Virus record (IMG/VR): IMGVR_UViG_2529292734_000008
Span: 1-7,538 of that record
Length of the DNA stretch: 7,538 nt
Strand: one strand, 5' to 3'
From: a virus
Lineage: Duplodnaviria; Heunggongvirae; Uroviricota; Caudoviricetes
Below the pieces are notes generated by a model. It saw nothing but the letters and a program-made list of their open reading frames with translations, was not told the origin of the DNA and searched no databases. The position numbers and the translations under genes are program-made. Position 1 is the first letter of the stretch. Every line of letters begins with the position of its first letter. This document shows positions 2,813 to 5,985 of the stretch, in pieces.

Positions 2813-3306
2813 TAAGCCCCCACGTAATTCCCTGAGAGATACCACTCTTCACCTGATGCAGCCCGCTTACTGCTTTTCCGTAAACACAGTTCACGACGTG
2901 CCAGAAAATTGTTTCGTTCTGGCTGGGAGTGGCTTTCACGGAATGCCGCCATCCACACCGTTGCAGCACGACGGTATAAGCCCCTGGACTCCAGTTCTTC
3001 CGCCTGGCGGGTCAGGCACAAAATCACCCGCGGGTCGTTAGTGCCGACATAGAAATTGCGCACAGGTCTGGTTTCACGAACTGGTTGTGGTTCCGGATCC
3101 TGCGCTCTCTCAGTCAGGCGCGGGAAATGTCTGTGTGTATCTCCTTCACAACGGTGAGCCACACGCCCACTCTGACGTAACTTGCTTGCTGACTGCAGAA
3201 CGCGCTGCCGTGAGTAACCTGCAAAAGCATCCGCAATGTCTCCGGAAGTACAGCCCGGATGGGCTTCAATGAATTTCTGAACGTCATTCAAAAGACTCAT
3301 GCTCAC
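2812..3306 (-). CDS. Phage regulatory protein, winged-helix-like N-terminus with PerC-like C-terminal region (putative)
   Basis: 164-aa ORF translationally coupled at both ends (ATGA with the replication gene stop; TAATG with the MTase start). The C-terminal segment LESRGLYRRAATVWMAAF resembles the conserved core I recall for PerC/Pch-family activators; this assignment is from memory and is tentative. Confidence 0.55.
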   Translation of the reverse strand: MSMSLLNDVQKFIEAHPGCTSGDIADAFAGYSRQRVLQSASKLRQSGRVAHRCEGDTHRHFPRLTERAQDPEPQPVRETRPVRNFYVGTNDPRVILCLTRQAEELESRGLYRRAATVWMAAFRESHSQPERNNFLARRELCLRKSSKRAASGEEWYLSGNYVGA

Positions 3307-4244
3307 CCCCTGAATCCTGCCGGGATCTGGCTGTAGTCCACATTGTCGTAACTGGCTTTGAAGTACGGGTCTTCGCGTTTTTCTGTGTACGTGCTGACGG
3401 ACGGCGATAAGCGCAGGGAAAGCTCATCCCATTTTTCCCGCAGCTTCGACGGGCTGAGCACGTTACGGCACCAGAACGGATCGCGGCTGACGCGGCTGTA
3501 CATCTCGCAGATTTGTTTGTGAGTACGACCATCCTGCACACACATCAGGCGAATTTCGTTTGCCCAGGCTGTCCAGTTCGGTTCTTTGGGACGAACCACC
3601 TCGCCGTCACATTCGGCAGCCTGCTCGTACAGGGCGATGATTTTTTTCCAGAGCCACTGTGCGCAGGTCAAATCATCCTGCGTCCCCCACTGGCGCTTTT
3701 TAGGGCTGAATACAACCGCATCAGGATGGCGAGTTAAAAAATCCTGTTCAGCCGTCTGCGTGTCCGGTTGCGAAGCGTCCGGACGAGAAGGTTTTTTATC
3801 TGACGGATCATGTTTTGATTTTACTGACGGATCCCCGCCAGATTCTGACGGGTGAAAACCCGCTTTTTTGCCAGATTTCGACGCATCAAATTTTGACGGG
3901 TCAGATTTTGATGCGTCAGATTTTGACGGGTCAGAATCTGACAGTTGAGAAAATGCCGCTGCCTGAAGCTTCGCAACGTTAAGCTGATAAACATTCGACG
4001 CATTGCGGTTACCCTGGCGACGCGCCTTACGCGTTAACCAGCCTTCTGCTTCCAGCCGTGCGATAGCCGTTCTGACGGTACTCATCCCCGCGCCAATCTG
4101 ACGGGCAATGGTTTCAATTGATGGCCAGCACACACCTTCGTCATTACTGAAATCAGCCAGGCGGGCCATAATTGCCACGCTGGATAACTTCATGCCTGAT
4201 GCAGCGCAACCATCCCATACATAGCCGGTTAATTTAGTGCTCAT
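3303..4244 (-). CDS. Phage replication initiation protein (lambda O-like function): N-terminal HTH DNA-binding domain, low-complexity linker, C-terminal domain
   Basis: 313-aa ORF. The N-terminus ([70 protein letters not shown]) is typical of phage replication-initiator HTH domains. The central linker SDSDPSKSDASKSDPSKFDASKS is encoded by tandem DNA repeats. SD GAGGT lies 5 nt upstream of the ATG. Confidence 0.8.
   Translation of the reverse strand: MSTKLTGYVWDGCAASGMKLSSVAIMARLADFSNDEGVCWPSIETIARQIGAGMSTVRTAIARLEAEGWLTRKARRQGNRNASNVYQLNVAKLQAAAFSQLSDSDPSKSDASKSDPSKFDASKSGKKAGFHPSESGGDPSVKSKHDPSDKKPSRPDASQPDTQTAEQDFLTRHPDAVVFSPKKRQWGTQDDLTCAQWLWKKIIALYEQAAECDGEVVRPKEPNWTAWANEIRLMCVQDGRTHKQICEMYSRVSRDPFWCRNVLSPSKLREKWDELSLRLSPSVSTYTEKREDPYFKASYDNVDYSQIPAGFRG
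3798..3950. repeat. Putative replication origin: about 8 iterons with 10-bp core TGAYGSRTCA inside the replication-initiator gene
   Basis: Core copies at about 3801, 3825, 3846, 3880, 3895, 3910, 3925 and 3940, the last four at exact 15-bp spacing (GATTT-TGACGGGTCA). Flanking T-rich tracts at 3791-3797 and 3864-3869. The position matches the lambda arrangement where ori lies within the O gene linker. Confidence 0.6.
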
Positions 4245-4592
4245 GACCGACCTCTATTTCCCTGAATTTACGACGAAACTGTTCGAGCGGACTGAAGCAT
4301 TCATGCTCATAACCTTCGCGGAGGTAGATAACCCGTTGTGTTTCCGGCTCCCAACGAATGACTCTGACGGGCACTCCGTAGTGATCTTTGAACCAGCGGT
4401 TAACTTGTCGCAAAGGACTGTCTCCTTCTGCCGGTTGAAATCACCCACAGCCCACTCTGCAAAGCTGTGGGTTACAATTTCCCTGTCACCTGGTACATTC
4501 ACTGCATAGCAATATTCCACCTTCGCTTTTCCACCCGGAACAGGAAGCGCAATCAGTTGCGAGCGACGGTAGTGTGTTGTTAAACTGTTCAT
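4234..4592 (-). CDS. Hypothetical phage protein, apparently frameshifted (N-terminal part in one frame, protein-like C-terminal part in another)
   Basis: The track ORF 4592-4254 starts [51 protein letters not shown] and then degenerates into a Ser/Thr-rich tail. From 4440 down to TAA 4236-4234 a second frame encodes [68 protein letters not shown]. The start overlaps the upstream gene stop as ATGA. Confidence 0.5.
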
Positions 4593-4978: not shown

Positions 4979-5185
4979 CTAATCGCCATCGGCACGAAGG
5001 CGGTTAAATAATGCGTTCTCTGTTACATCCAGCCAGTCAGCAGCTTCAGCGTAACCCCCCGGCAACGCTGCGATAGTTTTTCTGACAGCTTTCACGTACC
5101 ACTCAGGCTGTTTGTCTACTTTCCAGTGATGCTTACCCACGGTTAGCCTCATCGTTCTGTGGTTTCTGTTAATCGATTTATCCAT
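4979..5185 (-). CDS. CII-like / YdaT-like HTH regulatory protein (putative), ending at an amber codon
   Basis: HTH-like segment GYAEAADWLDVTENALFNRLR at the C-terminus, in the position of lambda cII (immediately downstream of cro). The start is uncertain: ATG 5185 overlaps the cro stop, with alternatives at 5197 and 5152; none has a strong SD. The ORF ends at TAG 4981-4979. Confidence 0.45.
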   Translation of the reverse strand: MDKSINRNHRTMRLTVGKHHWKVDKQPEWYVKAVRKTIAALPGGYAEAADWLDVTENALFNRLRADGD

Positions 5186-5475: not shown

Positions 5476-5985
5476 ATGGAAACGGTTGGTCAGCGTATAA
5501 AAGCTCTGAGAAGAGTTACCAGAACGTCCCAGAAAGAATTGGGTAAATTTTGTGGAGTAAGCGACGTTGCTGTGGGGTACTGGGAGAAAGACATCAATAC
5601 CCCTGGTGGGGAGGCACTTTCGAAATTAGCGAAGTTCTTCAATACGTCAATAGATTACATTCTTTATGGTGCTGAGTTTGAAGGCAAACTCGTCACAAAC
5701 ATGCGCAGAGTTCCTGTAATATCGTGGGTTCAGGCTGGGCAGTTTACTGAGTGCAGGGCAGCAGAAGTGTTTAGTGAAGTGGACAAGTGGGTAGATACAT
5801 CATTAAAGATTGGTGATAACTCATTTGCATTAGAGGTTAAAGGTGACTCCATGACTAACCCTAATGGCCTCCCAACAATACCAGAAGGCGCAACAGTGAT
5901 TGTAGATCCAGATGCAGAACCTCGTCATGGAAAAATAGTCATCGCTCGACTTGATGGAACAAACGAAGCTACAGTAAAAAATTAG
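5476..5985 (+). CDS. CI-type prophage repressor (XRE HTH + LexA-like S24 peptidase domain), truncated by a frameshift; remaining C-terminal codons continue in another frame to 6101
   Basis: N-terminal HTH (QKELGKFCGVSDVAVGYWEKD) and S24 catalytic Ser motif GDSM. The ORF ends ...ARLDGTNEATVKN*. The adjacent frame encodes KKLVIDGPQKFLVPLNPRYPNIPINGNCLIIGVVKGVQYEL* (to TAA 6099-6101), which matches the lambda CI C-terminus pattern [35 protein letters not shown]. The break is in the A6 run 5976-5981. Confidence 0.85.
   Translation: METVGQRIKALRRVTRTSQKELGKFCGVSDVAVGYWEKDINTPGGEALSKLAKFFNTSIDYILYGAEFEGKLVTNMRRVPVISWVQAGQFTECRAAEVFSEVDKWVDTSLKIGDNSFALEVKGDSMTNPNGLPTIPEGATVIVDPDAEPRHGKIVIARLDGTNEATVKN

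Follow-up and report, generated by a model that had tools for sequence, protein, structure and literature searches.

The window, by which we mean the whole stretch of 7,538 nucleotides that was analysed (IMG/VR record IMGVR_UViG_2529292734_000008), contains a prophage early region read on the minus strand. The ORF that is annotated there, ymfM (4254–4592, minus strand; ATG at 4592, TAG at 4256–4254), specifies a protein of 112 amino acids which matches PHROG 1170 over its full length; we refer to its reading frame as frame A. Its product is identical at 111 of 112 positions to YmfM of prophage e14 in Escherichia coli K-12 W3110, and the gene order ymfL-ymfM-replication gene is the same as in e14. 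The ymfL stop codon overlaps the ATG of ymfM (gcATGAac). The next gene downstream (3303–4244, minus strand; ATG at 4244–4242) specifies an O-like or "primosomal" replication protein with an HTH motif. At the junction between these two genes (4242–4256, minus strand) the sequence reads TAG-AGGTCGGTC-ATG, such that the stop codon of frame A overlaps the Shine-Dalgarno sequence (GAGG) of the replication gene and lies 9 nt before its ATG.

The part of ymfM which is overlapped by no second gene (4414–4592, minus strand) encodes a conserved N-terminal domain of approximately 55–59 amino acids. This domain is kept as a protein in E. coli, Klebsiella, Citrobacter phiNP and Providencia phages, and stand-alone ORFs of 59–77 amino acids, such as those of Citrobacter phiNP and Yersinia YeP2, also encode it. 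Among the YmfM relatives in a set of 5.8 billion proteins the 112-amino acid form is the commonest, with clusters of 1295, 300 and 96 members. The AlphaFold2 model has a modest pLDDT of 60–73 over residues 10–66 and values below 40 over residues 67–112, and the tail is thus predicted to be disordered. The original prediction described this tail as rich in Ser and Thr, which it is: these two residues make up 28% of positions 60–112 versus 12% of the first 59. Residues 19–50 of the N-terminal domain also match, at 37–47% identity, stretches that are repeated up to 13 times in giant proteins of 1076–1700 amino acids (P0212, P0232, P0233, P0246).

The neighbouring frame (frame B) is open, as had been noticed: a TGA codon at 4443–4441 is followed by 68 codons beginning at 4440 and by a TAA codon at 4236–4234, set against the replication gene 8 nt beyond its ATG (ATGAGCACTAA). 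Within this open frame lies a gene of 59 codons (4234–4413, minus strand) which begins with TTG, ends with the TAA, and is preceded by the Shine-Dalgarno sequence AAGGAG (4422–4427, minus strand) 8 nt before the TTG. Its product belongs to Pfam family DUF4222 [PF13973; E = 8.6e-19, 67.3 bits against a cut-off of 27]. The match spans profile positions 3–52 of 53, corresponding to residues 2–53 of the 59-amino acid ORF, so that the start of the Pfam domain coincides with the frame B start codon. PHROG 1343 matches the protein from end to end. In RefSeq exactly this CDS is present as a "DUF4222 domain-containing protein" [WP_001250269.1] in E. coli D6 and, within e14, in K-12 W3110-P. NCBI's pipeline (PGAP) does not call ymfM in either of these genomes, while the curated K-12 annotation and most phage records show only ymfM at this locus. 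In length and position the frame B protein resembles the usual member of its Pfam family, which consists of small phage proteins encoded upstream of replication genes.

Based upon an alignment of homologs from approximately 40 species, the start codon of frame B lies at the same position throughout; it is ATG in most lineages, GTG in some, and TTG in the E. coli type alone. A purine-rich motif resembling a Shine-Dalgarno sequence occurs at the same place upstream of it in all lineages. Frame B is closed just before its own start, by a stop codon 1 codon upstream in mEp390, 6 codons upstream in Klebsiella and 10 codons upstream in the window. The TGA which closes it in the window is polymorphic, being GGA in E. 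coli prophages of the PhiR49_1 type; in these (locus L004, 522–770) frame B is open for 83 codons. The databases also hold "DUF4222" proteins of 69–86 amino acids (P0093–P0095). The TTG start and the AAGGA(G) sequence, the latter paired with (U)CCUU, can be drawn into a predicted hairpin (4411–4428, minus strand), which within a 91-nt fold forms part of a longer stem (z = -3.0). This hairpin is restricted to the E. coli type and is not kept in the lineages with an ATG start, and we have therefore dropped it as evidence. An Rfam search of the window gave no match, and promoter and terminator scans gave results at chance level.

Could frame B be a chance ORF, with ymfM the only real gene, as is given in the curated K-12 annotation and in most phage records? 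We consider that there is next to no prospect of this. Apart from the Pfam match, AlphaFold2 (with 30 homologs) folds the DUF4222 protein confidently as a small beta-barrel plus helix (pLDDT 84), and its amino acid identity is 63–88% across the aligned phage homologs, 40% to Yersinia phage YeP2, and 32–54% in Providencia and Yersinia genomes. Since a Foldseek comparison of the model with the PDB found only generic barrels of the SH3/KOW/Tudor type (best E = 0.03), the fold does not reveal a function. A sequence search of the PDB with this protein gave no match, and neither it nor YmfM was matched in NCBIfam or PADLOC.

The original prediction held that the two frames are the halves of one gene, separated by a single-base indel at the plus-strand AAA of 4438–4440. 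The AAA is present, and an indel near it would indeed fuse the frames, though into a protein of 119 residues (51 + 68) rather than of 117. The second frame likewise proved to encode a real protein, as had been supposed, but one with its own Shine-Dalgarno sequence and start codon rather than the C-terminal half of the annotated gene. In favour of a split gene, whether by mutation or by sequencing error, and of a meaningless annotated tail, one could cite a Logan assembly in which a single contig encodes a 119-amino acid fusion with exactly this junction (P0065), and the fact that the same prophage carries a real frameshift in its cI-like gene and an amber codon in ymfL, both described below. 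Nevertheless, we regard this as highly improbable. The sequence of the window is 100% identical to that of phage Kati between 4150 and 4700 and to that of E. coli D6 between 4200 and 4620, and of 5426 complete E. coli genomes 2004 contain at least 80% of the latter segment, so that an assembly slip cannot be behind the layout. The same two-frame arrangement is kept in the homologs of some 40 species. Fused proteins are rare in the set of 5.8 billion (P0031, P0053, P0060 and P0065), each having a different junction, and a pseudogene test recovered no intact single-ORF homolog with a common junction among 133 loci. Since the stops upstream of frame B lie within 1–10 codons of its start, there is no common place at which a fused ancestor could have been joined. 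The outcome which the original prediction had named as its refutation, homologs matching the annotated frame alone, did not occur either, as the second-frame peptide has many matches.

In a tblastn search with the fused sequence as query two one-piece matches appeared, and both failed when read frame by frame. The mEp390 match is interrupted by a stop codon. Compared with ST64B, Salmonella phage 118970_sal3 differs within DUF4222 by a 1-nt indel private to it; the indel joins frame A to the second half of DUF4222 (locus L011, 341–721), and the product is annotated as a "putative antirepressor".

Fusion at the level of translation is another matter. Frame B is in the -1 register relative to frame A, a Shine-Dalgarno-like AAGGAG is found in the region, and tRNA-Phe could slip on U-UUC at 4440–4437, so that a programmed -1 ribosomal frameshift might join the YmfM N-terminal domain to DUF4222 as a minor product. 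However, no X XXY YYZ heptamer occurs between 4441 and 4413, the candidate region carries indels and is not conserved, and frame B remains closed until 1 codon before its start in mEp390 and 6 codons before it in Klebsiella. The position of these stops leaves no common site for a programmed shift, and a shift would give no reason for frame A staying open downstream. We judge it very unlikely. Frame B is an independently initiated gene, and not half of ymfM.

The two genes thus overlap out of frame for 160 nt (4254–4413, minus strand), comprising residues 60–112 of YmfM and residues 1–53 of the DUF4222 protein, with frame A in the +1 register relative to frame B. This overlap was studied in 46 loci, each species being represented by a single genome, together with 80 viral contigs and a number of phage records. 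Over the 51 codons of DUF4222 the +1 frame is free of stop codons in all 133 loci, which include 67 distinct overlap sequences, and the third (+2) frame is open in none of the 133. When the amino acid sequence of DUF4222 is kept constant and its synonymous codons are sampled according to their usage in 193 neighbouring ORFs, the +1 frame comes out open with a probability of 0.02–0.13 per sequence.

The choice of codons in frame B depends on what follows them. Among 32 representatives below 95% DNA identity, which are related sequences so that the counts are not fully independent, all 78 Val codons that precede a codon starting with A are GTT or GTC, against a background in which GTG and GTA account for 55%; all 21 Leu codons in the same context are CTC or CTT. 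Before codons starting with C or T, by comparison, Leu is CTG in 21 of 40 instances and Val is GTG or GTA in 11 of 42 (Fisher's test, p = 4e-6 and 1e-8). Parsimony on a neighbour-joining tree of 50 distinct sequences places ten synonymous changes in the three Val/Leu columns at risk, every one of them from pyrimidine to pyrimidine and none to a purine, while 26 of the 37 changes at control four-fold sites exchange one base class for the other (p = 7e-5). A within-gene permutation of synonymous codons is a weak test here (P = 0.08–0.69), since the codon usage of the gene as a whole already avoids stop-making codons.

More distant DUF4222 genes, those of Fraca, CharmingMan, EKP1 and Morganella phage IME1369_02, have no overlapping +1 ORF entering from upstream, unlike the clade to which the window belongs, and contain 1–3 stop codons in the +1 frame. 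The openness of frame A is therefore not due to the composition of the family. In an independent lineage (L149, reached via P0081) with a distantly related DUF4222 protein and a GTG start, frame A is open over the whole gene.

At the amino acid level the two frames behave differently. Over 406 pairs the mean identity is 0.75 for DUF4222 and 0.44 for the frame A tail, and within the overlap purifying selection on amino acids is found in frame B and not in the tail. Synonymous differences at identical DUF4222 residues amount to 0.456; codons 1–80 of the gene downstream give 0.490 when the same 104 pairs are compared. Given this low identity and these similar synonymous values, the sequence of the tail is almost free, with only stop codons being excluded, and such freedom fits the prediction that the tail is disordered. 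Frame B is under strong selection at the amino acid level; what is selected in frame A is the absence of stop codons.

A simpler account would be that the N-terminal domain and the DUF4222 gene alone matter, and that the ymfM read-through tail is an accidental feature which was inherited in open form and has no effect. The tail evolves almost as fast as neutral sites and is predicted to be disordered, N-domain genes without a tail exist, and PGAP leaves ymfM out altogether. An accident of inheritance, however, would hardly have left 67 distinct sequences free of stops when synonymous sites are near saturation (0.46–0.49), nor would it lead to the context-specific avoidance of stop-creating codons while turnover between pyrimidines goes on, and the more distant members of the family do have stops in this frame. 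We think it unlikely that the tail is accidental, though less so than the explanations discussed above.

The relationship of frame A to whatever follows it is also instructive. The frame A stop overlaps the Shine-Dalgarno sequence (GAGG or AAGGA) of the next gene with three different replication modules, while the position of the frame B stop varies. Frame A lacks this stop in SfV, ST64B, Hafnia yong2 and a C. braakii prophage, where it runs into the Pfam domains Phage_ASH and Phage_pRha. In RefSeq the resulting SfV-type ORF of 382 amino acids, from an MNSL start, is named a "Rha family" protein, and an intact DUF4222 ORF lies hidden inside it, invisible in the annotations of these prophages. 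The SfV/ST64B-type proteins known as "Rha family" or as orf37/Sb41 can be described as a YmfM-like N-terminal domain, the overlap tail, Phage_ASH and Phage_pRha; composite loci with an unannotated DUF4222 ORF are L150 (1623–2771), L014 (273–983) and L013 (282–1001). In Yersinia and Providencia the +1 frame is open over DUF4222 even though stop codons separate it from the upstream ORF, and coupling alone therefore does not account for its openness. In Providencia (L059, 1166–1360; L060, 1157–1360) this frame forms a separate ATG-started ORF of approximately 58 codons with a hydrophobic N-terminus (MKTQIILIGCIWISAVFVFVSYVM...), and judging from that sequence the product could be a small membrane protein encoded by a nested gene.

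The explanation which we favour, and consider probable, is that two genes of the prophage early-right operon, each initiated on its own, overlap out of frame at this locus. Translation of ymfM would start at the ATG overlapping the ymfL stop and produce a folded N-terminal domain of about 55 amino acids, after which the ribosome would continue in the +1 register through the DUF4222 gene and stop 9 nt before the ATG of the replication gene. The second gene would be initiated from its own Shine-Dalgarno sequence and TTG at 4413, giving the 59-amino acid SH3-like DUF4222 protein and terminating just inside the replication gene. The YmfM tail would then be an overprinted, disordered extension or linker of nearly free sequence, kept open because translation and the polypeptide must reach the start of the next gene. 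In e14-type phages the open frame A may couple the replication gene to ymfM by termination and reinitiation; in phages of the SfV type, where frame A runs on into the Ash-Rha protein, it would provide a physical fusion. The functional part of YmfM, as regards the SfiC division inhibition discussed below, is most likely the N-terminal domain. The nearly free sequence of the tail and the existence of tail-less N-domains weigh against a function of the tail as a peptide.

A precedent exists in phage lambda, where Rz1 is embedded in the +1 frame of another gene, Rz, of a lambdoid phage. In both cases same-strand phage genes are read in different frames, the inner gene is initiated from a Shine-Dalgarno sequence and start codon of its own, and both frames are open across relatives. 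The present overlap differs from Rz/Rz1 in covering only the 3'-terminal 160 nt of ymfM, in combining strong amino acid conservation of the inner gene with stop avoidance alone in the outer frame, and in belonging to the early-right (replication) operon instead of the lysis cassette. The proximity of stop and start codons is associated with translational coupling in polycistronic phage operons. The ATGA overlap of ymfL and ymfM and the ymfM stop within a Shine-Dalgarno sequence, 9 nt before the replication ATG, resemble such operons; here, unlike there, two upstream frames end at one downstream start, and the coupling is putative.

Conserved out-of-frame overlaps of this kind are known, and the two halves of the present one are already annotated separately in different databases. 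What is new is the evidence of selection on both frames and its consequence for the assignment of SfiC. Neither the records which give ymfM nor those of NCBI's pipeline, which give DUF4222, show that the two coexist or that both frames are selected. The overlap is also a clean natural example of stop codon avoidance without amino acid constraint, and may be useful for telling a requirement for translational coupling or for a linker from true dual coding.

YmfM has been reported to be SfiC, the SOS-inducible division inhibitor of e14 (Ansari et al., bioRxiv 10.1101/2020.11.19.390815). The evidence consists of a pBAD24 clone of "the open reading frame", which when expressed blocked the formation of the FtsZ ring, together with a deletion of ymfM, which was treated as one gene (Ansari et al., bioRxiv 10.1101/2020.11.19.390815). 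Earlier library clones extended from ymfL' to ymfN'. These papers do not mention the second frame, our literature search yielded no paper in which ymfM is connected with an overlapping gene, and DUF4222 itself is mentioned in few papers. The YmfM of Ansari et al. is that which is identical to frame A at 111 of 112 residues and is flanked in the same way by ymfL and the replication gene. Both their clone and their deletion, like every ymfM clone or deletion employed to date, also contain the Shine-Dalgarno sequence, the TTG and residues 1–53 of DUF4222, in other words the whole Pfam domain. Since the filamentation phenotype was mapped with constructs carrying both coding frames, which do not tell frame A from frame B, either product could account for the block of division. 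That SfiC is wholly or partly the hidden SH3-like DUF4222 protein and, separately, that the YmfM tail is an overprinted linker kept open across the prophages of the Enterobacterales, is a proposal which we make tentatively and to which we would give the lesser chance.

Elsewhere in the window, ymfL carries an amber codon (TAG, 4979–4981, minus strand) where phage Kati and E. coli D6 have CAG (Gln). It splits ymfL into ORFs of 91 and 122 amino acids, upstream of the ymfM start that is putatively coupled to the ymfL stop. The gene for a cI-like repressor of the LexA family has a run of six A residues at 5976–5981 (plus strand) versus seven in E. coli D6; the resulting frameshift leaves a protein of 169 instead of 208 amino acids, in which the last part of the peptidase domain is missing. 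A genuine one-base indel such as the original prediction had sought is present here, but in a different gene. Homology to phages begins at 1421, beside the RusA gene, and the first 1420 bases contain ORFs, such as that at 554–904 on the minus strand, which resemble those of an IS66-family element.
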